A stretch of 32,946 nucleotides of DNA, taken from a virus. Lineage: Duplodnaviria > Heunggongvirae > Uroviricota > Caudoviricetes. Below, one piece after another: positions 4,058 through 30,990 of this stretch (within the stretch, counting starts at the first letter, position 1; the number at the start of each line of letters is the position of its first letter). Position numbers and translations under genes: made by a program. The DNA lies in IMG/VR virus record IMGVR_UViG_2713897042_000007. One strand, written 5' to 3'. Below the pieces are notes generated by a model. It saw only the letters and a program-made list of their open reading frames with translations, ran no database searches and was not told the DNA's origin.

Positions 4058-4329
4058 GTATTCGTATTGAAATTGGCGAACGTTATGTCGTTACCAGTGA
4101 CAGCTTTCAGTTTATTCTCCACGAGAAAAAGAGAGCGGAAAGCGGTAAAAACGCCGGTCAGGAATGGCTGGCAGTGGTTGGTTATTACCCGAAATTAAGC
4201 CAGCTCGTTTCCGGCCTGATGCATCACGATATTCTGACCGGAAGCGCAAAGTCTTTTGCTGATTTAAACGCGCAGGTTGAGCAACTCAGCAGGCGTTGTT
4301 CAGAGGCTTTTGGCTCATATGGCCGTTAA
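4054..4329 (+). CDS. Hypothetical protein upstream of A
   Basis: 91-aa ORF, coupled start (ATGA). Its 3' end overlaps the A start. Confidence 0.5.
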   Translation: MSIRIEIGERYVVTSDSFQFILHEKKRAESGKNAGQEWLAVVGYYPKLSQLVSGLMHHDILTGSAKSFADLNAQVEQLSRRCSEAFGSYGR

Positions 4330-6604
4330 AGCCTCCGGGCGTTTTGTCCCTCCGTCAGCATTTGCCGCAGGCACCGGTGAGACGTTTACCGGTGCTTATG
4401 CATGGAACGCGCCACGCGAGGCCGTCGGGCGCGAAAGACCCCTTACACGTGACGAGATGCGTCAGGTGCAAGGTGCTTTATCCACGATTAACCGCCTGCC
4501 TTACTTTTTGCGCTCGCTGTTTACTTCACGCTATGACTACATCCGGCGCAATAAAAGCCCGGTGCACGGGTTTTATTTCCTCACATCCACTTTTCAGCGT
4601 CGTTTATGGCCGCGCATTGAGCGTGTGAATCAGCGCCATGAAATGAACACCGACGCGTCGTTGCTGTTTCTGGCAGAGCGTGACCATTATGCGCGTCTGC
4701 CGGGGATGAATGATAAGGAGCTGAAAAAGTTTGCCGCCCGTATCTCATCGCAGCTTTTCATGATGTATGAGGAACTCTGCGATGCCTGGGTGGATGCGCA
4801 TGGCGAAAAAGAATCGCTGTTTACGGATGAGGCGCAGGCTCACCTCTATGGTCATGTTGCTGGTGCTGCACGTGCTTTCAATATTTCCCCGCTCTACTGG
4901 AAAAAATACCGTAAAGGACAGATGACCACGAGGCAGGCATATTCTGCCATTGCCCGCCTGTTTAACGATGAGTGGTGGATTAGTCAGCTTAAAGGCCAGC
5001 GTATGCGCTGGCATGAGGCGTTACTGATTGCTGTCGGGGAGGTCAATAAAGACCGTTCACCTTATGCCAGTAAACATGCCATTCGTGATGTGCGTGCACG
5101 CCGCCAGGCAAATCTGGAATTTCTTAAATCGTGTGACCTTGAAAACAGGGAAACCGGCGAACGCATCGACCTTATCAGTAAGGTGATGGGCAGTATTTCT
5201 AATCCTGAAATTCGCCGGATGGAGCTGATGAACACCATTGCCGGTATTGAGCGTTACGCCGCCGCAGAGGGTGATGTGGGGATGTTTATCACGCTTACCG
5301 CGCCGTCAAAGTATCACCCGACACGTCAGGTCGGAAAAGGCGAAAGTAAAACCGTCCAGCTAAATCACGGCTGGAACGATGAGGCATTTAATCCAAAGGA
5401 TGCGCAGCGTTATCTCTGCCATATCTGGAGCCTGATGCGCACGGCATTCAAGGATAATGATTTACAGGTCTACGGTTTGCGTGTCGTCGAGCCACACCAC
5501 GACGGAACGCCGCACTGGCATATGATGCTTTTTTGTAATCCACGCCAGCGTAACCAGATTATCGAAATCATGCGTCGCTATGCGCTCAAAGAGGATGGCG
5601 ACGAAAGAGGAGCCGCGCGAAACCGTTTTCAGGCAAAACATCTTAACCGGGGCGGTGCTGCGGGGTATATCGCAAAATACATCTCAAAAAACATCGATGG
5701 CTATGCACTGGATGGTCAGCTCGATAATGATACCGGCAGGCCGCTGAAAGATACTGCTGCGGCTGTTACCGCATGGGCGTCAACGTGGCGCATACCACAA
5801 TTTAAAACGGTTGGCCTGCCGACAATGGGGGCTTACCGTGAACTACGCAAACTGCCTCGCGGCGTCAGCATTGCTGATGAGTTTGACGAACGCGTCGAGG
5901 CTGCACGCGCCGCCGCAGACAGTGGTGATTTTGCGTTGTATATCAGCGCGCAGGGCGGGGCAAATGTCCCGCGCGATTGTCAGACTGTCAGGGTCGCCCG
6001 TAGCCCGTCGGATGACGTTAACGAGTACGAGGAAGAAGTCGAGAGAGTGGTCGGCATTTACGCGCCGCATCTCGGCGCGCGTCATATTCATATCACCAGA
6101 ACGACGGACTGGCGCATTGTTCCGAAAGTGCCGGTCGTTGAGCCTTTGACTTTAAAAAGCGGCATCGCCGCGCCTCGGAGTCCTGTCAATAACTGTGGAA
6201 AGCTCACCGGTGGTGATACTTCGTTACCGGCTCCCACACCTTCTGAACACGCCGCAGCAGTGCTTAATCTGGTTGATGACGGTGTTATCGAATGGAATGA
6301 CCCGGAGGTCGTGAGGGCGCTCAGGGGCGCATTAAAATACGGGCTGAGAACACCAAATCGTCAGCAGAGAAACGGAAGCCCGTTAAAACCACATGAAATT
6401 GCACCATCGGCCAGACTGACCCGGTCGGAAAGAATGCAAATTACCCGTATCCGCGTTGACCTTGCTCAGAACGGTATCAGGCCGCAGCGATGGGAGCTTG
6501 AGGCGCTGGCGCGTGGCGCGACCGTAAATTATGACGGGAAAAAATTCACGTATCCGGTCGCTGATGAGTGGCCGGGATTCTCAACAGTAATGGCGCGGAT
6601 ATAA
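4319..6604 (+). CDS. A: Rolling-circle replication initiator A (HUH endonuclease)
   Basis: Start at the in-frame ATG 4319 gives 761 aa, the P2 A length (track ORF from 4277 is 775 aa). HUH motif TPHWHMMLF and paired tyrosines GYIAKYISK. Confidence 0.92.
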   Translation: MAVKASGRFVPPSAFAAGTGETFTGAYAWNAPREAVGRERPLTRDEMRQVQGALSTINRLPYFLRSLFTSRYDYIRRNKSPVHGFYFLTSTFQRRLWPRIERVNQRHEMNTDASLLFLAERDHYARLPGMNDKELKKFAARISSQLFMMYEELCDAWVDAHGEKESLFTDEAQAHLYGHVAGAARAFNISPLYWKKYRKGQMTTRQAYSAIARLFNDEWWISQLKGQRMRWHEALLIAVGEVNKDRSPYASKHAIRDVRARRQANLEFLKSCDLENRETGERIDLISKVMGSISNPEIRRMELMNTIAGIERYAAAEGDVGMFITLTAPSKYHPTRQVGKGESKTVQLNHGWNDEAFNPKDAQRYLCHIWSLMRTAFKDNDLQVYGLRVVEPHHDGTPHWHMMLFCNPRQRNQIIEIMRRYALKEDGDERGAARNRFQAKHLNRGGAAGYIAKYISKNIDGYALDGQLDNDTGRPLKDTAAAVTAWASTWRIPQFKTVGLPTMGAYRELRKLPRGVSIADEFDERVEAARAAADSGDFALYISAQGGANVPRDCQTVRVARSPSDDVNEYEEEVERVVGIYAPHLGARHIHITRTTDWRIVPKVPVVEPLTLKSGIAAPRSPVNNCGKLTGGDTSLPAPTPSEHAAAVLNLVDDGVIEWNDPEVVRALRGALKYGLRTPNRQQRNGSPLKPHEIAPSARLTRSERMQITRIRVDLAQNGIRPQRWELEALARGATVNYDGKKFTYPVADEWPGFSTVMARI

Positions 6605-6816
6605 TGACAAAGATTCACAAAGTAAAGCTGCACGCAAGATATTTCAACCTTGTGCTGGAGGGAAAAGAAACGCACAGAATTTAGGGGGATAGCCGTTATC
6701 ATGTGTATGAAGCACTTGAAATGTATCTGCATCACTTGGGAGTGTGTCAACGGGGAATTTCCATCTATGTGATTTTTTGAGAGCAATGCAGTGAAGATAA
6801 AGATACTTATTATAAA

Positions 6817-6936
6817 TCAATGTGATAGATGGTGCCTCGCAAACGTAAATGATAGTTTTGAAGCTTCAGGGCTGATGTCGTTCATAAGACTGTGTTTACG
6901 CTATCATTTATGATAAAAATAATTAATTTTTATCAT
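6817..6936. promoter_or_regulatory. Putative promoter/operator of the cargo operon
   Basis: AT-rich region upstream of the 6961 start. Palindrome ATGATAAAAA-N7-TTTTTATCAT at 6910-6936. Related TGATAG/ATGATA copies at 6822-6830, 6846-6854 and, inverted, 6901-6909. Confidence 0.4.
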
Positions 6937-6960
6937 AAAGATTCAACAGAGGATATGTTG

Positions 6961-8466
6961 ATGAATCAACTAAAATCAATGAATATCAATAAGTTACTTT
7001 TGGATGTTGATAACCCTCGTTTCCCGACGTCAGCAGAAAATCAGCGTGATGCTATTGCCAAGATGCTTGACTTGCAGTACGACCGCATTTATCGCTTGGC
7101 TAAAGATATTGCTTCGAAAGGTTTAGATCCGTCTGAAAACATATTAGTTTATCCTAGTGAAGAGGAATCTGGCTTTTTCGTCGTTGCTGAAGGTAATCGT
7201 CGAGTTACAGCCCTTAAACTTTTACACTCTCCTAGACTTGCACCAACAGAAAAAGCACGGAAAGCTTTTGAAAAACTTAAGATTACTCAGCTTAAAGATA
7301 TTAATGTTATAGATAACTGCGTTCTTTTTGACGATGATGAATATGAGCATTGGGTCAATTTAAAGCATACTGGTCAAAATGCTGGAGTTGGAAGAGTTGA
7401 ATGGACTGCAACAGAAAAAGCACGACATCTGGCTAGGATGGGTAAGCAGTCATTTGGTAATCAAATACTTACATTTATAGAGTTCAATACTGATTTATAT
7501 AAAGAGATAATTGCTAAAAAAAGACTTTTAAAAATCACAAACATCACGCGTCTTTTTGGTGATTTAAAGGTGAGGGATTATTTTAATTTAAAAAGCATTA
7601 ATGGAGTTCTATACTCATATCAGCCTTATGAACGTTTTTGTGCACAATTAAAAAATATTTTAGATGTAATGATTGAAGAGGATGATAAAGGTAAGGCTTG
7701 TTTTACTGTTAATAGGATTCGTAGCCAAGATGACAGGGTTACATTTATTATTGAACAAAAAATAAAACCTTCAGAATCTCTTTTAGATAAGCCGTGGAGT
7801 TTACTAGAGCCTAAATCTTTTCTTACAGAGAAAAAACATGATTCTATTGACAAAAATGATGCATCTGTGAGTGTAAAGAAAGTAGGTCTTTCAGAAGGTG
7901 ATGCCTTAAAGAATACAGGTGTGGATAAACAGGAAGATGATTATTCTAGACATGTAGGCACAGAAGAGAGTAAATCTAAAGTTTCGGGTACGGAACAGAA
8001 TAAAAACAAGGGAAAAACTCCTCCTAAAGTAGATCGTAATGTGTTGGTGCCATCTTATGTGAAATTTAATTTTAGAGGGCATAAGAAATGCTCTAGAATA
8101 TTTAATGAGCTTAAGTCGCATCTGACATTTGATAACACCCCTAATGCTATCTCAATATTGTTGAGAATATTTATAGATCTCTCTGTAAGCACTTTTGTTG
8201 AAGAAAACAAGTTACAATTTAAGGAACCACATAGAACTCCAGGGCTTCATGATAAGGTTAAAATGTGTGCTAATTTCCTTCGGGAAAATAAAAAGATGAC
8301 GGGGAGTCAATGTACGGCTGTAATAACTTTCTCGAGCCAAATAACTAAACATGATGGTTCATTGCAGCAGTATGTACATAACCCACACTTAATTCCCTCA
8401 AAAGAGGCTGTCAACACTGAGTGGGATAACTTTGAGTTGTTATTAAGCCTTATTTGGAGTGAGTGA
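6961..8466 (+). CDS. ParB/Srx-like N-terminal domain protein with uncharacterised C-terminal region (cargo)
   Basis: About 501 aa from the ATG at 6961 (GAGGA 7 nt upstream; in-frame alternatives at 6955 and 6892). N-terminus has ParB-type motifs (DVDNPRF; VVAEGNRRVTALKLL, the GxRR box). Central K/E/S-rich low-complexity linker. Visibly AT-rich against flanking phage genes. Confidence 0.7.
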   Translation: MNQLKSMNINKLLLDVDNPRFPTSAENQRDAIAKMLDLQYDRIYRLAKDIASKGLDPSENILVYPSEEESGFFVVAEGNRRVTALKLLHSPRLAPTEKARKAFEKLKITQLKDINVIDNCVLFDDDEYEHWVNLKHTGQNAGVGRVEWTATEKARHLARMGKQSFGNQILTFIEFNTDLYKEIIAKKRLLKITNITRLFGDLKVRDYFNLKSINGVLYSYQPYERFCAQLKNILDVMIEEDDKGKACFTVNRIRSQDDRVTFIIEQKIKPSESLLDKPWSLLEPKSFLTEKKHDSIDKNDASVSVKKVGLSEGDALKNTGVDKQEDDYSRHVGTEESKSKVSGTEQNKNKGKTPPKVDRNVLVPSYVKFNFRGHKKCSRIFNELKSHLTFDNTPNAISILLRIFIDLSVSTFVEENKLQFKEPHRTPGLHDKVKMCANFLRENKKMTGSQCTAVITFSSQITKHDGSLQQYVHNPHLIPSKEAVNTEWDNFELLLSLIWSE

Positions 8467-8535
8467 GATTTGTCTACATCTGGACATGGATGTCCAGAAA
8501 CTGATAAACTACAAAATCAGGAATGAGAGGGATTT

Positions 8536-9420
8536 ATGAAATTTTATACTCCATTAAGATACCCCGGCGGGAAAGGTAAGTTATCTTACTTTTTAAAAGA
8601 TGTTATTGAAAAAAACTCGTTGAATGATGGAGCATATGCAGAACCTTACGCTGGTGGTGCAGGGGTGGCTTTAGAATTATTATTGGAAGAGTATGTCCGT
8701 AAAATCTATATAAATGATGCAGATTTTGCTGTTTATTCTTTTTGGTCATCTGTTGTTAGTGATACTGATGAGCTTTGCCGACTTATTAGCCGAGCAAAGA
8801 TAGATATGGATGAATGGTCTTTTCATCGCTATGTTATTTCGAATCCTTCTGAGTTTACTAAGCTTGAGGTTGGCTTTGCTGCGTTTTTCTTAAATAGAAC
8901 AAATCGTTCAGGTATTCTCAAGGCGGGGGTTATAGGCGGGAAATCACAAAATGGAAAATGGAAAATGGATGTTCGCTTTAACAGGGCGGATTTAATTTCA
9001 AGAATTGAGAAGATAGCAAATTATAATCAAAGAATAGTAGTAACTAATCTGGATGCTTTGGATTTTCTTGATGCCTTGAATTTTATGGATAATATGGGAA
9101 AGGTGGATAAAAATAAAATTCTTTTGTATTTGGATCCTCCTTACTATATTAAAGGGCAAGGGCTTTACAGGAATTTTTATGAGCATGATGACCATGTATT
9201 GGTTATGAAGAAACTCACAGAAATTAATTTCCCAAATTGGCTTGTTTCTTATGATAACGCTAAGGAAATTAAAGATATTTATAATGGATTTCCGCAAGTT
9301 GAGTATTCATTGCAATATACAGCGCATCTCAAAAAATCTGGAGAGGAAGTGATGATTTTTTCTCCTGAAATAATTATTCCTAATACCCTGAAAGGGGTCT
9401 CAATTCCAACTTGCGCCTGA
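8536..9420 (+). CDS. Dam-family (D12 class) N6-adenine DNA methyltransferase (cargo)
   Basis: 294 aa. N-terminal RYPGGKGKL, AdoMet-binding EPYAGGAG and catalytic DPPY align to the same positions as in E. coli Dam. RBS GAGAGGG upstream. AT-rich, co-oriented with the gene before it. Confidence 0.85.
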   Translation: MKFYTPLRYPGGKGKLSYFLKDVIEKNSLNDGAYAEPYAGGAGVALELLLEEYVRKIYINDADFAVYSFWSSVVSDTDELCRLISRAKIDMDEWSFHRYVISNPSEFTKLEVGFAAFFLNRTNRSGILKAGVIGGKSQNGKWKMDVRFNRADLISRIEKIANYNQRIVVTNLDALDFLDALNFMDNMGKVDKNKILLYLDPPYYIKGQGLYRNFYEHDDHVLVMKKLTEINFPNWLVSYDNAKEIKDIYNGFPQVEYSLQYTAHLKKSGEEVMIFSPEIIIPNTLKGVSIPTCA

Positions 9421-9567
9421 TTTTACTTATTTTTTGTCAGTAAGTAATTAGTTTGGTGCATTTATTTGCATTCATTTTTAAATGCCAGTTCTGGTATCTA
9501 ACATCAGTGCTGGCGCATTCTAACCATTACTGCTGCACTGCATTTAAAGCCCTGCATGAAGCGGGCG

Positions 9568-9586
9568 GGCGAGGCGGGGAAAGCAC
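9568..9586. other. cos cohesive-end site
   Basis: GGCGAGGCGGGGAAAGCAC matches the 19-nt P2/186 cohesive end as I recall it. Lies in the non-coding gap just before the portal/terminase genes, as in P2, with G/T-rich repeats to its right. Confidence 0.75.
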
Positions 9587-9755: not shown

Positions 9756-10790
9756 TCAGCCGTTGTCTGTGTCCAGTGAGTAGTTTTTAAAGCGGATGAC
9801 CTCCTGACCGAGCCAGCCGTTTATTTCCCGAATCCTGTCCTGTAGCGGGATAAGCTCATTGCGGACAAAGACCTTTGCCACTTTCTCAATATCACCCAGC
9901 GACCCGACGTTCTCCGGCTTGCCGCCCATCAACTGAAAGGGGATGCGGTGTGCGTCCAGCAGGTCAGCGGCGCTGGCTTTTTTGATATTAAAAAAATCGT
10001 CCTTCGTTGCCACTTCACTGAGCGGGATAATTTTAATGCCGTCAGCTTTCCCCTGCGGGGCATAGAGAAACAGATTTTTAAAGTTGTTGCGGCCTTTCGA
10101 CTTCACCATGTTTTCGCGAAGCATTTCGATATCGTTGCGATCCTGCACGGCATCGGTGACGTACATGATGTATCCGGCATGTGCGCCGTTTTCGTAATAC
10201 TTGCGGCGGAACAACGTGGCCGACTCATTCAGCCAGGCAGAGTTAAGGGCGCTGAGGTATTCCGGCAGGCCGTACAGCTCCTGATTAATATCCGGCTCCA
10301 GCAGGTGAAACACGGAACCGGGCGTGAAAGGTGTCGGCTCGTTGAAGGACGGCACCCACCAGTAAACATCCTCTTCCACACCACGGCGGGTATATTTTGC
10401 CGGTGAGGTTTCCAGTCTGATGACCTTACCGGTGGTGCTGTAACGCTTTTCCAGAAACGCATTACCGAACACCAGAAAATCCAGCACAAAGCGGCTGAAA
10501 TCCTGCTGGGACAGCCACGGGTGCGGGATAAACGTTGAAGCCAGAATATTGCGTTTGACGTAAATCGGTGAGCTGTGATGCACGGCAGCACGCAGGCTTT
10601 TTGCCAGACCGGTAAAGCTGATTGGTGGCTCATACCATCTGCCGTTACTGATGCATTCGACGTAATCCAGAATGTCACGGCGGTCGAGTACCGGCACCGG
10701 CTCACCAAAGGTGAATGCCTCCATTTTCGGAGCGCTGGCGGTGATTGTTTTTTCCGCAGGTTGCGGTGTTTTCCCTTTTTTCTTGCTCAT
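9756..10790 (-). CDS. Q: Portal protein
   Basis: 344 aa, the P2 Q length. First gene of the leftward Q-P operon next to cos. Confidence 0.93.
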   Translation of the reverse strand: MSKKKGKTPQPAEKTITASAPKMEAFTFGEPVPVLDRRDILDYVECISNGRWYEPPISFTGLAKSLRAAVHHSSPIYVKRNILASTFIPHPWLSQQDFSRFVLDFLVFGNAFLEKRYSTTGKVIRLETSPAKYTRRGVEEDVYWWVPSFNEPTPFTPGSVFHLLEPDINQELYGLPEYLSALNSAWLNESATLFRRKYYENGAHAGYIMYVTDAVQDRNDIEMLRENMVKSKGRNNFKNLFLYAPQGKADGIKIIPLSEVATKDDFFNIKKASAADLLDAHRIPFQLMGGKPENVGSLGDIEKVAKVFVRNELIPLQDRIREINGWLGQEVIRFKNYSLDTDNG

Positions 10791-24173: not shown

Positions 24174-24701
24174 ATGCAGCATTTAAAAAATATTACTGCG
24201 GGTAATCCAAAAACTGTTGCCCAATATCAACTGACAAAAAATTTTGATGTTATCTGGTTATGGTCCGAAGAGGGAAAAAACTGGTATGAGGAAGTAAGTA
24301 ATTTTCAGGAAGACACGATAAAGATTGTTTACGACGAGAATAATATAATTGTCGGCATCACCAGAGATGCTTCAACGCTTAACCCTGAAGGTTTTAGCGT
24401 TGTCGAGGTTCCTGATATTACCGCCAACCGACGTGCTGATGACTCAGGTAAATGGATGTTTAAGGATGGTGCTGTGATTAAGCGGATTTATACGGCAGAC
24501 GAACAGCTGCAACTGGCGGAATTACAGAAGTCAGCTTTGCTTTCCGAAGCTGAAACTATCATTCAGCCACTGGAACGCTCTGTCAGACTGAATATGGCAA
24601 CAGATGAGGAGCGTAGCCGACTGGAAGCATGGGAACGCTACAGTGTTCTGGTCAGCCGTGTGGATCCTGCAAATCCTGAATGGCCGGAAATGCCGCAATA
24701 A
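24174..24701 (+). CDS. G: Tail fiber assembly chaperone G
   Basis: 175 aa, the P2 G length, immediately after H. Confidence 0.88.
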
Positions 24702-25122: not shown

Positions 25123-25965
25123 ATGAAAAAAGAATTGTTTGGACGTTGCCCGTTTGATCTTGACGAAGATGTAAAAAAAATAGCCGCGATAAATAAATAT
25201 ATCCATGCAAAATTTGAGGAGCATAAAAATAAAATAGACAACCTAAAGGGTGTGGAACAAAAATTGATGGTCTTACAGTACTTTAATGTACTGAATGAAC
25301 TTAGTAATCAGGCTATCTCTTCTTTGAATATAGGAGCCTTTTCAGCATCGGAAGTATTAGCTAGGGTTATAATAGAACAGGCTGCCAATCAATTTTATAT
25401 AGCAATAGATGATGGCGAAAATGCACAAGCGTTACTCAAGGCTAGTAAGAAATTAGTTCATAGTAATGGAAAACGGTGGCTGGAGTGTTTAAAATCCAAA
25501 GGAATGACTAATCCAGCAGCAAATGAAAGGATTCGCATGGGAAAAGAACTAACTGATCTATTTAATAGATTGTGGCCAAATACACCTGAATATCCAGGAA
25601 CCAGAAAACTTTTTGAATTAATTGGCTGGGAAACACACTATCATGCCCATTACGTTCCCCTTTGTGATTCAATACATACATTCTCTGATGATATGGTAAA
25701 TATAGTATCTCTATATAATGCAATCCAAAGTGATGAAACTACTGCTATCGAATTCATTCTTGCAGTTAAACAAGAAAATAAACGGCTGGCAATTTATAAT
25801 TTTGTAATTGCTACGGCCCTTCGGTGTGAGGCCTTAGTAAATGTATTTAACTCTTTAGGTTATCAGGATATTATAACAGAAATGACACCAACAATAGATA
25901 CAGTCAACCAGACTATAATTCGATATGATGATTTTGATCATTCCAGAATTGATGATTGTCAATAA
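25123..25965 (+). CDS. Hypothetical cargo protein (position of P2 Z/fun)
   Basis: 280-aa ORF with AGGAGA RBS and a TATAAT-like element about 40 bp upstream. Strongly AT-rich. No catalytic motif I can recognise. Confidence 0.7.
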   Translation: MKKELFGRCPFDLDEDVKKIAAINKYIHAKFEEHKNKIDNLKGVEQKLMVLQYFNVLNELSNQAISSLNIGAFSASEVLARVIIEQAANQFYIAIDDGENAQALLKASKKLVHSNGKRWLECLKSKGMTNPAANERIRMGKELTDLFNRLWPNTPEYPGTRKLFELIGWETHYHAHYVPLCDSIHTFSDDMVNIVSLYNAIQSDETTAIEFILAVKQENKRLAIYNFVIATALRCEALVNVFNSLGYQDIITEMTPTIDTVNQTIIRYDDFDHSRIDDCQ

Positions 25966-26344: not shown

Positions 26345-27535
26345 ATGAGCGACTATCATCATGGCGTGCAGGTGCTGGAGATTAACGACGGCACCCGCGT
26401 CATTTCCACCGTATCCACCGCCATTGTCGGCATGGTCTGCACGGCCAGCGATGCGGATGCGGAAATCTTCCCCCTCAATAAACCGGTGCTGATCACCAAT
26501 GTGCAGAGCGCAATTGCAAAGGCCGGTAAAAAAGGCACGCTGGCGGCATCGTTGCAGGCCATCGCTGACCAGTCAAAACCGGTCACCGTTGTCGTGCGCG
26601 TGGAAGACGGAACCGGCGACGACGAAGAAACGAAACTCGCGCAGACCGTTTCCAATATTATCGGCACCACCGACGAAAACGGTCAGTACACCGGACTGAA
26701 AGCCCTGCTGGCGGCGGAGTCGGTAACCGGTGTTAAACCGCGCATTCTCGGTGTGCCGGGACTGGACACCAAAGAGGTGGCTGTTGCACTGGCATCAGTC
26801 TGTCAGAAGCTGCGCGCTTTCGGGTATATCAGCGCATGGGGCTGTAAAACCATTTCCGAGGTGAAAGCCTACCGTCAGAATTTCAGCCAGCGTGAGCTGA
26901 TGGTCATCTGGCCGGATTTCCTCGCATGGGATACGGTCACCAGTACCACCGCCACCGCGTATGCCACCGCCCGTGCACTGGGCTTGCGCGCTAAAATCGA
27001 CCAGGAGCAGGGCTGGCATAAAACACTGTCCAACGTCGGGGTGAACGGTGTTACCGGCATCAGCGCATCTGTATTCTGGGATTTGCAGGAGTCCGGCACT
27101 GATGCTGACCTGCTTAACGAGTCAGGCGTCACAACGCTGATTCGCCGTGATGGTTTCCGCTTCTGGGGTAACCGTACCTGCTCTGATGACCCGCTGTTCC
27201 TCTTTGAAAACTACACCCGCACCGCGCAGGTGCTGGCCGACACGATGGCTGAGGCGCACATGTGGGCGGTGGACAAGCCCATCACCGCAACGCTGATTCG
27301 CGACATCGTTGACGGCATCAATGCCAAATTCCGTGAGCTGAAAACAAACGGCTATATCGTGGATGCGACCTGCTGGTTCAGCGAAGAATCCAACGATGCG
27401 GAAACCCTCAAGGCCGGAAAACTGTATATCGACTACGACTATACACCGGTGCCTCCTCTCGAAAACCTGACCCTGCGCCAGCGTATTACCGATAAATACC
27501 TGGCAAATCTGGTCACTTCGGTTAACAGCAATTAA
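26345..27535 (+). CDS. FI: Contractile tail sheath protein
   Basis: 396 aa, the P2 FI length. Confidence 0.93.
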   Translation: MSDYHHGVQVLEINDGTRVISTVSTAIVGMVCTASDADAEIFPLNKPVLITNVQSAIAKAGKKGTLAASLQAIADQSKPVTVVVRVEDGTGDDEETKLAQTVSNIIGTTDENGQYTGLKALLAAESVTGVKPRILGVPGLDTKEVAVALASVCQKLRAFGYISAWGCKTISEVKAYRQNFSQRELMVIWPDFLAWDTVTSTTATAYATARALGLRAKIDQEQGWHKTLSNVGVNGVTGISASVFWDLQESGTDADLLNESGVTTLIRRDGFRFWGNRTCSDDPLFLFENYTRTAQVLADTMAEAHMWAVDKPITATLIRDIVDGINAKFRELKTNGYIVDATCWFSEESNDAETLKAGKLYIDYDYTPVPPLENLTLRQRITDKYLANLVTSVNSN

Positions 27536-27547
27536 GGAGCCTGACCG

Positions 27548-28066
27548 ATGGCAATGCCGCGCAAACTCAAGTTAATGAACGTCTTTCTGAACGGCTACAG
27601 CTATCAGTGCGTTGCAAAGTCCGTCACGCTGCCAAAACTGACCCGTAAGCTCGAAAACTATCGCGGTGCGGGGATGAACGGCAGCGCACCGGTAGACCTC
27701 GGCCTTGATGACGATGCGCTGTCAATGGAGTGGTCTCTCGGGGGCTTCCCGGATTCGGTTATCTGGGAGCTTTACGCCGCAACCGGTGTGGATGCTGTGC
27801 CGATTCGTTTTGCCGGTTCTTACCAGCGCGACGATACCGGCGAAACGGTGGCCGTCGAGGTGGTCATGCGTGGACGTCAGAAAGAAATCGACACCGGCGA
27901 GGGGAAACAGGGAGAAGACACCGAGTCGAAAATCTCCGTGGTCTGTACCTATTTCCGGCTGACGATGGACGGTAAGGAGTTGGTCGAAATTGACACCATC
28001 AACATGATTGAGAAGGTGAACGGCGTCGACCGGCTGGAGCAACACCGCCGCAATATCGGCCTGTGA
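27548..28066 (+). CDS. FII: Tail tube protein
   Basis: 172 aa, the P2 FII length. Confidence 0.93.
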   Translation: MAMPRKLKLMNVFLNGYSYQCVAKSVTLPKLTRKLENYRGAGMNGSAPVDLGLDDDALSMEWSLGGFPDSVIWELYAATGVDAVPIRFAGSYQRDDTGETVAVEVVMRGRQKEIDTGEGKQGEDTESKISVVCTYFRLTMDGKELVEIDTINMIEKVNGVDRLEQHRRNIGL

Positions 28067-28122
28067 TTTTCATCCGGTCAGCCGGGCTGACCGGTTAACC
28101 CCGATTCATAAGTGAGAAAACC

Positions 28123-28398
28123 ATGAACAAAGAAAATGTGATTACCCTGGACAATCCGGTCAAGCGTGGTGAGCAGGTTATCGAACAGGTCACGCTGATG
28201 AAACCCAATGCCGGGACGCTGCGCGGTGTCAGTCTGGCTGCGGTCGCAAATTCCGAAGTCGATGCACTGATTAAAGTGCTGCCGCGCATGACGGCACCGA
28301 TGCTGACCGAGCAGGAGGTCGCCGCGCTGGAACTGCCTGACCTTGTGGCGCTGGCCGGTAAGGTGGTCGGTTTTTTGTCGCCGAACTCGGTGCAGTAA
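28123..28398 (+). CDS. E: Tail assembly chaperone E
   Basis: 91 aa, the P2 E length. Contains the slippery heptamer T_TTT_TTG at 28371-28377. Confidence 0.88.
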   Translation: MNKENVITLDNPVKRGEQVIEQVTLMKPNAGTLRGVSLAAVANSEVDALIKVLPRMTAPMLTEQEVAALELPDLVALAGKVVGFLSPNSVQ

Positions 28399-28550
28399 CG
28401 TTTCCGAAAAATCTCTCGGTCGATGACCTGATGGCGGATGTGGCAGTGATATTTCACTGGCCGCCATCAGAACTGTATCCCATGAGCCTGACCGAACTCA
28501 TCACATGGCGCGAAAAGGCGCTCCGGCGAAGCGGAAACACGAATGAGTAA
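28123..28550 (+). CDS. E': Tail assembly chaperone E+E' (programmed -1 frameshift product)
   Basis: A -1 shift at 28371-28377 opens a 57-codon extension with no stop until TAA at 28548-28550. Total 142 aa, the P2 E+E' length. Confidence 0.75.
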
Positions 28551-30990
28551 CAATGTAAAATTACAGGTATTGCTCAGGGCTGTTGACCAGGCATCCCGCC
28601 CGTTTAAATCCATCCGCACAGCGAGCAAATCGCTGTCGGGGGATATCCGGGACACACAAAAATCACTGCGCGAGCTGAACGGTCACGCATCCCGTATTGA
28701 GGGATTTCGCAAGACCAGTGCACAGCTCGCCGTGACTGGTCAGGAACTGAAAAAAGCCAGACAGGAAGCCGCAGCTCTGGCTGTCCAGTTTAAAAATACT
28801 GAACGACCGACAAATGCACAGGCAAAGGCAATGGAAGCCGCGCGTAAAAATGCGTCTGAGTTACAGGCGAAATATAACAGCCTGAGATTGTCGGTACAGC
28901 GCCAGCGTCAGGAATTGAGTCAGGCGGGTATTAATACCCGTAATCTGGCGCATGATGAACGAGGGCTGAAAAACCGTATCAGTGAAACCACCGCACAGCT
29001 TAACCGTCAGCGTGACGCGCTGGCACGTGTCAGTGCACAACAGGCAAAACTTAACGCAGTCAAACAGCGTTATCAGGCCGGAAAGGAACTGGCCGGAAAT
29101 ATGGCCTCGGTGGGCGCTGCCGGTGTGGGGATTGCGGCGGCGGGAACGATGGCCGGAGTTAAGTTGCTAATGCCCGGTTATGAGTTTGCGCAGAAAAACT
29201 CAGAATTGCAGGCCGTGCTCGGAGTGGCAAAAGACTCCGCCGAAATGGCTGCACTCCGCAAGCAGGCGCGCCAGCTCGGCGATAATACCGCCGCCTCGGC
29301 GGATGATGCGGCCGGTGCGCAGATTATCATTGCGAAAGCGGGTGGAGATGCTGCGGCTATTCAGGCGGCAACGCCGGTCACGCTGAATATGGCACTGGCG
29401 AATCAGCGGTCGATGGAAGAAAACGCGCAACTGTTACTGGGGACTAAGGCATCCTTTCAACTGTCAAATGATGATGTCAGCCATGTGGGCGACGTGTTGT
29501 CGGCAACGATGAATAAGTCGGCGGCTGATTTTCAGGGACTCAGTGATGCACTGACTTACCTCGGGCCGGTTGCGAGGACGGCAGGTGTAAGTCTTGAGCA
29601 GGCAGCGGCCATGACAGGTGTGCTGCATGACAATAACATCAGGGGGTCAATGGCGGGTACGGGTAGCAGTGCCGTTGTCACCCGATTACAGGCACCGACT
29701 GGAAAAGCATGGGATGCACTCAAAGAGCTTGGCGTTAAAACCTCGGACAAAAAGGGAAATATGCGTCCGTTGTTCACCATTCTGAAAGAGATTCAGGCCA
29801 GCTTTGATAAACACAAGCTGGGAACGTCTCAGAAGGGGGAATACCTTAAAACCATTTTTGGTGAGGAAGCCCTGAAATCAGCGAACGTTTTACTGGCAGC
29901 GGCAGCAAGCGGAAAACTGGATACGCTGACCGCCACGCTGAAAGCCTCGGACGGTAAAACGGAAGAGCTGGTTAAAATCATGCAGGATAACCTCGGCGGT
30001 GACTTTAAGGAGTTTCAGTCCGCTTATGAGGCGGTGGGGACTGACCTGTTTGACCAGCAAGAAGGCACACTGCGTAAGCTCACGCAGACGGCCACAAAGT
30101 ATGTGTTAAAACTCGACGGCTGGATACAGAAAAACAAATCACTGGCGTCAACCATTGGCCTCATTGCCGGTGGCGCACTGGCGCTGACTGGTGTCATCGG
30201 TGCCATTGGTCTTGTAGCCTGGCCGGTTATCACCGGCATCAATGCCATCATCGCGGCAGCAGGCGCAATGGGGGCAATCTTCACGACGGTTGGTAGTGCC
30301 GTTATGACGGCCATCGGGGCGATTAGCTGGTCGGTTGTGGCTGTGGTGGCCGCCATTGTCGCCGGGGCGTTGCTTATCCGTAAATACTGGGAGCCTGTCA
30401 GCGCATTCTTCGGCGGTGTGGTTGAAGGGCTGAAAGCAGCATTTGCGCCGGTGGGGGAACTGTTCACGCCACTTAAGCCGGTGTTTGACTGGCTGGGTGA
30501 AAAGTTACAGGCCGCGTGGCAGTGGTTTAAAAACCTGATTGCCCCGGTTAAAGCCACCCAGGACACCCTGAACCGTTGCCGTGACACGGGCGTCATGTTC
30601 GGGCAGGCACTGGCTGACGCGCTGATGCTGCCGCTTAATGCGTTCAACAAACTGCGCAGCGGTATTGACTGGGTACTGGAAAAGCTCGGGGTCATCAACA
30701 AAGAGTCAGACACACTTGACCAGACCGCCGCCAGAACTCATGCCGCCACGTATGGCACCGGTGGTTATATTCCGGCGACCAGCTCTTATGCAGGCTATCA
30801 GGCTTATCAGCCGGTCACGGCACCGGCTGGCCGCTCTTATGTGGACCAGAGTAAAAACGAATATCACATCAGCCTGACGGGTGGTACTGCGCCGGGGACA
30901 CAGCTTGACCGCCAGTTACAGGATGCGCTCGAAAAATACGAGCGGGATAAACGTGCGCGCGCCCGTGCCAGCATGATGCATGACGGTTAA
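28543..30990 (+). CDS. T: Tail tape measure protein
   Basis: 815 aa, the P2 T length. Helical N-terminal half and Gly/Ala-rich hydrophobic segments. Confidence 0.93.
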   Translation: MSNNVKLQVLLRAVDQASRPFKSIRTASKSLSGDIRDTQKSLRELNGHASRIEGFRKTSAQLAVTGQELKKARQEAAALAVQFKNTERPTNAQAKAMEAARKNASELQAKYNSLRLSVQRQRQELSQAGINTRNLAHDERGLKNRISETTAQLNRQRDALARVSAQQAKLNAVKQRYQAGKELAGNMASVGAAGVGIAAAGTMAGVKLLMPGYEFAQKNSELQAVLGVAKDSAEMAALRKQARQLGDNTAASADDAAGAQIIIAKAGGDAAAIQAATPVTLNMALANQRSMEENAQLLLGTKASFQLSNDDVSHVGDVLSATMNKSAADFQGLSDALTYLGPVARTAGVSLEQAAAMTGVLHDNNIRGSMAGTGSSAVVTRLQAPTGKAWDALKELGVKTSDKKGNMRPLFTILKEIQASFDKHKLGTSQKGEYLKTIFGEEALKSANVLLAAAASGKLDTLTATLKASDGKTEELVKIMQDNLGGDFKEFQSAYEAVGTDLFDQQEGTLRKLTQTATKYVLKLDGWIQKNKSLASTIGLIAGGALALTGVIGAIGLVAWPVITGINAIIAAAGAMGAIFTTVGSAVMTAIGAISWSVVAVVAAIVAGALLIRKYWEPVSAFFGGVVEGLKAAFAPVGELFTPLKPVFDWLGEKLQAAWQWFKNLIAPVKATQDTLNRCRDTGVMFGQALADALMLPLNAFNKLRSGIDWVLEKLGVINKESDTLDQTAARTHAATYGTGGYIPATSSYAGYQAYQPVTAPAGRSYVDQSKNEYHISLTGGTAPGTQLDRQLQDALEKYERDKRARARASMMHDG

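Follow-up and report, generated by a model that had tools for sequence, protein, structure and literature searches.

A two-gene cargo matching the anti-phage system PD-λ-5 in the gpA–cos hotspot of a P2-like prophage

Two AT-rich genes between gpA and cos

The window, that is, the whole stretch of 32,946 nucleotides analysed here (IMG/VR record IMGVR_UViG_2713897042_000007), carries two co-oriented genes, A and B, as cargo of the hotspot between the P2 gpA stop (6604) and cos (9568–9586) (Table 1). Both are AT-rich, with a GC content of 0.30–0.39 across positions 6600–9450 as against 0.49–0.61 in the flanking P2 genes. The RefSeq start of gpA is equivalent to window position 4319. On the right, the interval is bounded by GGCGAGGCGGGGAAAGCAC, the P2 cos 19-mer; nucleotide 1 of the linear genomes L-413C and P24B2 aligns with window position 9568. 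Beyond it, the portal gene Q is intact here and frameshifted in E. coli A7. The gpA–cos hotspot of P2-like phages is dedicated to anti-phage cargo; ParB or methylase cargo is not mentioned in Rousset 2022. A preliminary description of this DNA, made from its letters alone, had placed a two-gene AT-rich cargo in the gpA-to-cos hotspot, and every element that it named lies where it was put.

Table 1 Features of the gpA–cos interval and its flanks (window coordinates)
Feature	Position	Strand	Evidence or remark
P2 gpA, replication endonuclease; left hotspot flank, outside the system	4319..6604	+	ORF; RefSeq 'replication endonuclease' in 99.9% identical loci
DUF3850 / P2 orf91-type gene remnant (5' stub, pseudogene)	6604..6685	+	Matching positions of L001 and L002 carry a DUF3850 CDS that RefSeq marks as frameshifted and incomplete
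Promoter-like site TTTACG-17-AATAAT, upstream of gene A	6895..6923	+	Weak evidence only
Perfect 14-bp inverted repeat, 5-nt spacer (TTTATGATAAAAAT / ATTTTTATCATAAA)	6907..6939		Overlaps promoter-like site; 22 nt before gene A start
PD-λ-5 gene A, 501 aa	6961..8466	+	PADLOC PD-Lambda-5_A, PHROG 9592, E. coli A7 identity
A residues 1–288, predicted ParB/Srx-fold N-terminal domain and helical KorB/ParB-like DNA-binding region	6961..7824	+	Structure model, fold searches
E77-G-N-R-R81 box of A, invariant	7189–7203	+	
A residues 289–354, predicted disordered low-complexity linker, K/E/S-rich	7825..8022	+	pLDDT <50; without conserved columns
A residues 355–501, predicted all-helical HEPN-fold domain	8023..8463	+	Fold search
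R425-x4-H430 in the HEPN-fold domain of A	8233–8250	+	
Y471-x-H473-N474 of A, family-invariant	8371–8382	+	
PD-λ-5 gene B, D12-class (Dam-family) N6-adenine DNA methyltransferase, 294 aa	8536..9420	+	PADLOC, Pfam MethyltransfD12
DPPY catalytic motif of B, residues 200–203	9133–9144	+	
P2 cos 19-nt cohesive-end sequence, right hotspot boundary	9568..9586		19-mer match; alignment to L-413C, P24B2
P2 portal gene Q; right flank, outside the system	9756..10790	−	ORF; RefSeq 'phage portal protein' in L001

The mechanical open reading frame of gene A spans 6892–8466, but its real start is the ATG at 6961, which sits 7 nt past a GAGGA Shine–Dalgarno sequence. RefSeq uses the same start, the PADLOC and PHROG profiles begin there, and both this ATG and its ribosome-binding site are kept in Enterobacter and Salmonella. 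Gene B follows 69 nt downstream on the same strand.

The 356 bp upstream of gene A (6605–6960) hold an orf91-type gene remnant and a promoter-like site. Wphi and L-413C have an intact orf91 (DUF3850) at the position of the stub, which is a scar left by cargo replacement. Promoter-like sites in the region show no excess over chance (12 found, 10.7 expected), and promoter and terminator scans gave counts not above those of shuffled controls, so no regulatory claim is built on them. The 14-bp inverted repeat recurs unchanged in the ECOR7/A7 prototype; Enterobacter and Salmonella have a degenerate version and Serratia has none. Kept neither there nor in four distant loci, this palindrome was dropped as a candidate conserved operator. 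The insert of the functional prototype clone reached at least 272 bp upstream of A, and the vector supplied no promoter (PMC9519451).

The gene pair matches PD-λ-5

PADLOC calls PD-Lambda-5 over the full length of both proteins, where the preliminary description had been unable to match the pair to any named system. PD-Lambda-5_A (PDLC03998) matches A at 6.3e-168 (residues 24–523 of the long open reading frame against profile positions 1–465 of 466), another 24 PD-Lambda-5_A profiles also match, and PHROG 9592 matches at 1.6e-210; PD-Lambda-5_B (PDLC04018) matches B at 1.5e-121 (residues 1–286 against profile positions 1–280 of 291). In E. coli A7, an orangutan isolate that we equate with ECOR7, the locus again lies between gpA and the portal gene and is identical at 2955/2963 nt, with 500/501 residues of A the same. 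Table S2 of Vassallo 2022 lists PD-λ-5 as ECOR7 RCQ13837.1 + RCQ13838.1, 'ParB/HEPN, methyltransferase', with a span of 2460 bp (PMC9519451). The gene span here (6961–9420) is likewise 2460 bp, and B is identical at 291/294 residues to P0018 = RCQ13838.1, the published PD-λ-5 methylase, with which it falls in the same 90% cluster.

The gene pair, its order, the 69-nt spacing, the span and the P2 gpA–portal position are thus all as in the prototype. The present locus departs from it by 8 nt; at the protein level, A has V308A, which falls in its disordered linker, and B has three substitutions, two within its last 8 residues. A and B lie adjacent on one strand as a single unit, and nothing weighs against the assignment. 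We therefore regard it as close to certain that the locus is PD-λ-5, carried as a two-gene anti-phage moron cargo in the gpA–cos hotspot of a P2-like prophage, and that it is essentially the prototype allele (ECOR7).

The locus is accordingly real and defensive, and it is already known: PD-λ-5 has been named, catalogued and phenotype-validated since 2022, and has been listed in PADLOC and DefenseFinder since 2022–23. A cloned locus of 99.7% identity has been shown to defend (PMC9519451), which bears out the earlier proposal that the gpA–cos pair is an anti-phage module; a defence module in a P2 hotspot had been correctly recognised from raw sequence. The preliminary description had named a match of both proteins to a well-characterised system as its refutation, and this holds by half: both match a named system of which the phenotype, though not the mechanism, has been established by experiment.

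Cloned with its native promoter in E. coli, PD-λ-5 gave protection against 9/10 phages, strongest against T-even phages but covering also λvir and T7, for example, whose DNA is unmodified (PMC9519451). Cloning of the prototype needed a host lacking mrr, namely MG1655 lacking mrr (PMC9519451), and the discoverers thought the system to be a compacted R-M plus Abi system (PMC9519451). Apart from this original remark, the papers searched for a PD-λ-5 mechanism yielded census mentions and nothing further.

Domain architecture of A and motifs of B

On the structure model (mean pLDDT 78), A is predicted to begin with a ParB/Srx part and its helical region, joined through a disordered linker to a HEPN-fold domain. 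Fold searches with A returned ParB/Srx and HEPN folds only: the N-terminal part has a ParB/Srx fold and matched ParB, KorB and Noc, and the C-terminal part has a four- to five-helix HEPN fold. This architecture, taken from the structure model, is a new detail for PD-λ-5.

Pfam hmmscan and NCBIfam searches of A gave nothing significant (the sole match, RepB at E 0.021, is far below cut-off), and Pfam ParBc gave no hmmscan match to A at E up to 1; by HHpred, Vassallo 2022 obtained ParBc at 96.4% probability for A (PMC9519451). Among Pfam HEPN families, DUF4145 was matched by 1/37 members (0.021) and DUF5677 by 6/37 (best 0.0041), all below curated cut-offs, and HEPN_MAE_28990 and HEPN_Swt1 gave no sequence-level match to A. 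PDB sequences searched with the A family profile produced chance matches only. A DUF5677 protein from the second hotspot of the prophage was considered as a relative of the C-terminal domain of A and rejected (hhalign probability 0.1). The protein of ~500 aa with a ParB/Srx-type N-terminus noted at the outset is thus upheld by the structure model, the fold searches and the invariant EGNRR, and not via Pfam hmmscan.

Conservation across the family singles out several positions. The GxRR(xxA) box of the ParB/Srx superfamily, which serves nucleotide binding or catalysis, takes the form E77-G-N-R-R81-x-T-A in 37/37 homologues, down to 30% identity, a further new detail for PD-λ-5; H136, G138, N140 and G142 are also invariant. 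In the C-terminal domain the polar residues R359, E383, R402, Y471, H473 and N474 are invariant, which favours catalysis or ligand binding over scaffolding. The HEPN Rx4-6H motif occurs in A as R425-TPGL-H430. Homologues retain H430 to about 40% identity and R425, which K or Q may replace, to about 43%; the most divergent clade (~30% identity) has neither, and there R or K precedes Y471-x-H473-N474 with Rx6H spacing. A per-sequence check shows RTPGLH to be clade-restricted.

Pfam MethyltransfD12 matches B at 3.6e-16, in agreement with the D12-class adenine methyltransferase first assigned to it, and at the level of sequence the D12 motif set of B, with DPPY and with EPYAGGAG at residues 36–43, is intact. 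The PADLOC model for a 'Type II methyltransferase' matches B as well, at 3.7e-103. The methyltransferase of the PD-λ-5 pair most likely marks DNA.

These assignments raise the question of whether the pair is simply a type II-like R-M system, in which A would be an endonuclease cutting unmethylated DNA via its ParB/Srx site, the HEPN-fold domain would have a structural, dimerisation or regulatory role and there would be no Abi arm. B is consistent with this, having intact catalytic and SAM-binding motifs as well as the type II match; A stands where a restriction gene would, nuclease activity is documented for ParB/Srx proteins (Maindola 2014), and the Rx4-6H of A is not family-invariant. A partner endonuclease of recognised restriction fold was, however, not found in A, for which Pfam, PADLOC and fold searches gave no PD-(D/E)XK, HNH, GIY-YIG or PLD fold, and the invariant polar residues of its C-terminal domain argue against the reading. 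So does the design of the original screen, in which clones with high-frequency R-M-type escape plaques were put aside before candidates were picked (PMC9519451). Furthermore, most classical restriction enzymes fail on the glucosyl-hydroxymethylcytosine DNA of T-even phages (PMC9519451), and the strongest protection being against these phages, with their hypermodified cytosines, makes a simple type II reading a poor fit. We consider it unlikely.

Distribution and conserved pairing

The allele is present in 22/5426 complete E. coli genomes (≥99% identity, full length), where it was seen only in prophages; 12 further E. coli genomes among the 5426 gave partial matches at 90–95%. Among 50,697 phage records, megablast with 6605–9567 found none that matched. 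Of the independent loci examined, 8/9 keep a D12 methylase paired with A, down to 25% identity and from E. coli to Desulfoluna and a Pseudomonas phage, and this conserved pairing is a new detail for PD-λ-5. A D12 methylase comes after A in Desulfoluna, Acinetobacter, a metagenome, Vibrio parahaemolyticus, Enterobacter, Salmonella and Serratia; the pair of the Pseudomonas phage is convergent (A 25.6%, B 45% identical), and a Vibrio prophage encodes a distant A-like protein without a methylase neighbour.

The fallback offered in the preliminary description, an orphan anti-restriction or epigenetic methylase beside a functionally unrelated neighbour, is disfavoured by this pairing, which persists in different phyla and contexts, whether the genes lie in tandem or converge, and also by the cloning of A and B together as a functional unit (PMC9519451). 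That B alone has all methyltransferase motifs speaks for it, and we judge it highly improbable.

The A–B pair moves as a unit among prophages, integrase islands and chromosomal sites. R-M-like pairs behave as selfish addiction modules, and both this behaviour and the joint mobility would suit post-segregational killing, whereby loss of the prophage would dilute the methylation by B, A would kill the cell and defence would be a side effect. The robust, broad anti-phage phenotype of a plasmid clone (PMC9519451) and a position in a hotspot dedicated to anti-phage cargo point the other way, making addiction quite improbable as the primary role. One module could serve both addiction and defence.

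A possible mechanism

The likeliest mechanism is methylation-based self-marking that is read by A, with either the ParB/Srx nuclease site of A or its HEPN domain as effector. B would methylate adenines at a short motif on host and prophage DNA. A would read DNA via its ParB-like, probably nucleotide-dependent, module and tell apart incoming DNA lacking the mark; in the effector step the ParB/Srx site may then nick, the HEPN-fold domain may cleave RNA, or the two may act together. Such a scheme would amount to the 'compacted R-M plus abortive-infection' idea of the discoverers, and the prophage would gain a lysogen shielded from superinfection. That the prototype was kept only without Mrr, which restricts methylated DNA, suggests that the self-mark of B is active in vivo. 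Against the scheme, none of the four folds recognised for restriction nucleases was found in A, its Rx4-6H is lost in the most divergent clade, hmmscan gives no Pfam HEPN or ParBc match to A, protection is best against T-even phages with their restriction-resistant DNA, and a Vibrio prophage has a distant A-like protein without a neighbouring methylase.

We further propose, as a possible if doubtful reading, that PD-λ-5 is a distinct form of modification-dependent immunity, in which a ParB/KorB-like, nucleotide-gated DNA-loading module reads adenine methylation and is coupled to a HEPN-fold effector within a single polypeptide.

Relation to other defence systems

The three components have been predicted together before. 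Anantharaman et al. 2013 predicted, in operons of the MAE_28990 family, HEPN proteins associated with both a ParB nuclease and a DNA methylase, and also ParB–HEPN fusions (Saro_3948). Those systems have the same ParB/Srx, HEPN and DNA methylase components and were proposed as a multi-pronged defence of R-M plus RNase; in PD-λ-5, by contrast with the MAE_28990 operons, a single polypeptide holds both ParB and HEPN. PrrC–EcoprrI, in which a type I R-M system harbours a latent anticodon nuclease, is similar in concept, with modification as first line and a HEPN RNase as suicidal second line. However, PrrC has an ABC ATPase N-terminus and acts inside a three-subunit type I system, whereas PD-λ-5 is a two-gene system with a ParB-like N-terminus and without HsdR or HsdS.

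A two-domain plan like that of A is found in GmrSD, BrxU and SspE, which join an N-terminal ParB-superfamily nucleotide-dependent module to a C-terminal nuclease-type effector and whose activity is tied to DNA modification. By analogy, A might use methylated self DNA as platform or activator, or sense modified phage DNA, and then attack the invader. The shared plan, the best protection being against T-even phages with their modified DNA and the existence of a distant A-like protein without methylase all agree with such modification-stimulated logic. Against it, A has no Pfam match to DUF262 or DUF1524; protection also reaches λvir and T7, whose DNA is unmodified; and the strict pairing in 8/9 loci fits self-marking more simply. 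We regard this alternative as improbable. PD-λ-5 further differs from those DUF262 + DUF1524 proteins in its C-terminal domain, which has a HEPN and not an HNH fold, and in bringing its own methyltransferase.

The same P2 hotspot in Wphi carries gp98, gp96 and mth. The ParB-like N-terminal 300 residues of gp98 match A (26% identity, E 4e-9), and the gene beside gp98, mth, encodes a DNA methyltransferase. Unlike in PD-λ-5, mth is on the opposite strand and its product carries a cytosine methylase annotation, gp96 is an extra gene, and in gp98 (401 aa) the first ~300 residues alone align with A.

If modification-dependent reading by a ParB/KorB-like module coupled to a HEPN-fold effector is correct, what is new would be how a named system works, and not the locus. 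PD-λ-5 would then be a restriction-like system without a classical restriction nuclease, and its activity on T-even phages would be explained. EGNRR, H136/G138/N140/G142, R402, Y471-x-H473-N474, the domain boundaries of A and the pairing with B offer concrete leads for work on this mechanism, and ParB-like proteins beside methylases in other P2 hotspots, such as gp98 with mth in Wphi, could in that case belong to a wider unrecognised family of this kind.

Identity and layout of the cargo locus

The preliminary description had noted, from sequence alone, two AT-rich ORFs encoding a ParB-like protein and a Dam-family methyltransferase in the interval between P2 replication gene A (gpA) and cos, and every particular of it was confirmed by coordinates, GC content and domains. 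Its supposition that no named system fits these two genes was wrong: a PADLOC check of both proteins identifies the first (A) as PD-Lambda-5_A (6.3e-168, full length, with 24 further PD-Lambda-5_A profiles) and the second (B) as PD-Lambda-5_B (1.5e-121). A Pfam search of A returned nothing; B matches MethyltransfD12 (3.6e-16), and PHROGs places A in a family of unknown function (1.6e-210) and B among DNA methyltransferases.

PD-λ-5 was found by functional selection (Vassallo et al. 2022; PMC9519451), is labelled 'ParB/HEPN, methyltransferase' in Table S1 of that study and comes, according to Table S2, from E. coli ECOR7, contig QOWS01000001 (RCQ13837.1 and RCQ13838.1). The published gene span (264599-267059) equals 6961-9420 of the window in length. 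By exact-sequence look-up, B shares a 90% cluster with RCQ13838.1, to which it is identical at 291 of 294 residues. The longest contig recorded for RCQ13838.1 is the 4,836,060-bp chromosome of E. coli A7, an orangutan isolate, as is ECOR7; there the locus has the P2 replication endonuclease on one side and the portal gene on the other, A is identical to that of the window at 500 of 501 residues, and 8 positions of the 2963-bp interval are different. It is near-certain, by all criteria testable here, that the window locus is PD-λ-5, and it is thus an already known locus, not a new one.

A whole P2-like (Peduovirus) prophage, with int at one end and ogr at the other, makes up the window. Yersinia phage L-413C and Peduovirus P24B2 share ~96% identity with its structural half (9568-32946), position 9568 aligns with nucleotide 1 of their linear genomes, and the 19-mer GGCGAGGCGGGGAAAGCAC at 9568-9586 is what we take to be the P2 cohesive end (cos). 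GC content is 0.30-0.39 over 6600-9450, versus 0.49-0.61 in the P2 genes on either side. The truncated DUF3850 stub looks like a scar of the replacement of ancestral orf91/tin/old-type cargo by PD-λ-5.

Coordinates of the cargo genes, their flanks and related features (window positions unless a locus is named)
Feature	Position	Strand	Remarks
P2 replication gene A	stop 6604		left flank of cargo
DUF3850 (P2 orf91-type) stub	6604-6685	+	truncated and frameshifted; RefSeq annotation in 99.9% identical loci; directly after gpA stop
ORF containing gene A	6892-8466	+	524 aa as mechanical ORF
Perfect 14-bp inverted repeat, 5-nt spacer	6907-6939		22 nt upstream of A start; overlaps promoter-like site
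Gene B ORF	8536-9420	+	294 aa
Portal gene Q	9756-10790	minus	right flank of cargo; ORF intact, 344 aa
Second AT-rich cargo gene	25123-25965	+	Z/fun locus; 280-aa DUF5677 protein
Unannotated D12 methylase, 291 aa	4397-5272 of L012 (Pseudomonas phage OQ658368.1 locus)	minus	partner A homologue labelled 'hypothetical protein'

The true start of gene A is ATG 6961, giving 501 aa, since a GAGGA Shine-Dalgarno sequence lies 7 nt ahead of it, RefSeq chose it in 99.9% identical loci, the PADLOC and PHROG profile alignments begin there, and Enterobacter and Salmonella homologues keep both this start and its ribosome-binding site. The ECOR7 prototype carries the upstream inverted repeat unchanged; Enterobacter and Salmonella have degenerate versions of it, and Serratia and the more distant loci examined lack it. 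The number of such repeats expected by chance in the interval is roughly estimated at ~0.005.

Distribution of the allele

Of 5426 complete E. coli genomes, 22 carry the allele at ≥99% identity and full length, each time on the chromosome, and it was found in no sequenced phage record searched; the A sequence of the window is recorded on 353 contigs. In 8 of 20 E. coli chromosomes among the matches listed, the match falls at record positions 2286/2287-5248/5249, which means that those assemblies are rotated to begin at the P2 gpA replication gene; start-fixing tools probably mistook this prophage gene for the chromosomal start. In the A7/ECOR7 locus (L002, NZ_CP028767.1) the portal gene is annotated as frameshifted (6151-7184), whereas it is intact in the window, so the prophage of the prototype may be defective and that of the window may not.

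Domain plan and conserved residues of A

A collection of 5.8 billion proteins yielded 204 homologues of A, down to 28% identity; Gammaproteobacteria contribute most of them, and Desulfobacteria and metagenomes are also represented. When 37 homologues are aligned, invariant columns occur in the N-terminal part (E77-G-N-R-R81, W131, H136, G138, N140, G142, W148, R197 and D201) and in the C-terminal part (R359, P364, E383, L384, R402, L429, Y471, H473 and N474). In the ParB/Srx superfamily, the GxRR box, invariant in this alignment, serves for nucleotide binding and catalysis.

In the AlphaFold model made from the same alignment (mean pLDDT 78), residues 1-288 are folded, residues 289-354 form a disordered linker (pLDDT <50) and residues 355-501 a helical C-terminal domain. 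A canonical HEPN Rx4-6H motif, R425-TPGL-H430, is found where helix 429-442 begins. Homologues retain H430 down to ~40% identity and R425, with K/Q swaps, down to ~43%; neither occurs in the ~30% identity clade, in which R or K precedes the invariant H473 in Rx6H spacing. The model shows a domain plan of ParB/KorB-like N-terminal module, linker and HEPN-fold domain. B carries the SAM-binding motif EPYAGGAG and the catalytic motif DPPY.

Pairing of A with D12 methyltransferases

A D12 methyltransferase directly follows the A homologue in Enterobacter asburiae (same P2 hotspot), Salmonella (integrase island), Serratia fonticola (past a P2 gpA), Vibrio parahaemolyticus, Acinetobacter baumannii (amid housekeeping genes), Desulfoluna spongiiphila (a prophage-like region by an integrase) and a metagenomic contig (30% identity). 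In Pseudomonas phage OQ658368.1, a 25.6% identical A homologue is convergent with a D12 methylase 45% identical to B; this is a PD-λ-5-like pair that went unnoticed in a deposited phage genome.

Pairing thus holds in 8 of 9 independent contexts and in two orientations, which for practical purposes rules out the alternative, also raised in the preliminary description, of an orphan methylase with an unrelated neighbour; its main interpretation was right in kind. In the sole exception, a Vibrio cyclitrophicus prophage element (Vibrio phage 10N.286.55.C4_PE001, PQ189371.1) carries at its edge a distant A-like protein (552 aa, 27% identity), with no D12 methylase nearby. The protein adjoins a 425-aa HNH_2-domain protein, labelled a type II REase by the depositors, and may represent a methylase-free variant or a system cut by the element boundary.

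Activity and possible mechanism

Methylated DNA is restricted by Mrr. Cloning of the prototype, under its native promoter on a low-copy plasmid, required MG1655 without the mrr region (PMC9519451); evidently, then, the methylase works in vivo. The prototype was shown to defend its host, and it did so more strongly against T-even phages than against λvir, the selecting phage; the authors' HHpred table assigned residues 6-89 of A to ParBc (96.4% probability), with only faint HEPN-clan hints at the C terminus (DUF4145 at 35.6%; PMC9519451). A literature search found no later mechanistic study of PD-λ-5; later papers give census counts or repeat the remark that it is 'thought to be R-M/Abi'.

An R-M-like sensor-plus-effector model can be proposed, to which we give slightly less than an even chance. 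B would lay down an m6A self-mark, and the ParB/KorB-like module of A would engage DNA and tell unmarked DNA apart. As effector, either the ParB/Srx site would nick DNA or the HEPN-fold domain would act as an RNase. RNase action would supply an abortive arm of the type that Anantharaman et al. (2013) suggested for HEPN proteins linked to R-M systems; their study had already listed operons that combine HEPN families with ParB nucleases and methylases, together with one ParB-HEPN fusion. Without a recognised restriction fold in A, PD-λ-5 falls outside the classical type II R-M systems. How strongly T-even phages are affected counts against a conventional cytosine-sensitive type II enzyme and allows for a modification-stimulated logic like that of SspE or GmrSD. 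Having neither a DUF262 nor a DUF1524 domain, PD-λ-5 does not belong to the GmrSD or SspE family.

Other cargo in P2 hotspots

The second AT-rich gene of the window occupies the other P2 hotspot of this prophage, flanked by the tail-fibre assembly gene (24174-24701) on one side and by sheath gene FI (26345-27535) on the other; its GC content is 0.33-0.37 versus 0.5-0.59 in its flanks. Its product matches Pfam DUF5677 (5.3e-10, above cut-off) and PHROG 4167 (unknown function), had no PADLOC match and shows no detectable relation to PD-λ-5_A; the gene is a candidate for an unnamed single-gene defence.

In the PD-λ-5 hotspot itself, Escherichia phage Wphi (NC_005056.1, 28504-32684) encodes gp98, a 401-aa ParB-like protein 26% identical to PD-λ-5_A over 300 residues, and gp98 and gp96 adjoin the oppositely oriented mth, which encodes a DNA cytosine methyltransferase. 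L-413C (27058-30728) carries there a lone 330-aa ParB-like protein, a distant relative of PD-λ-5_A. The combination of a ParB-like protein with a methylase may be a recurring theme of the P2 hotspot.
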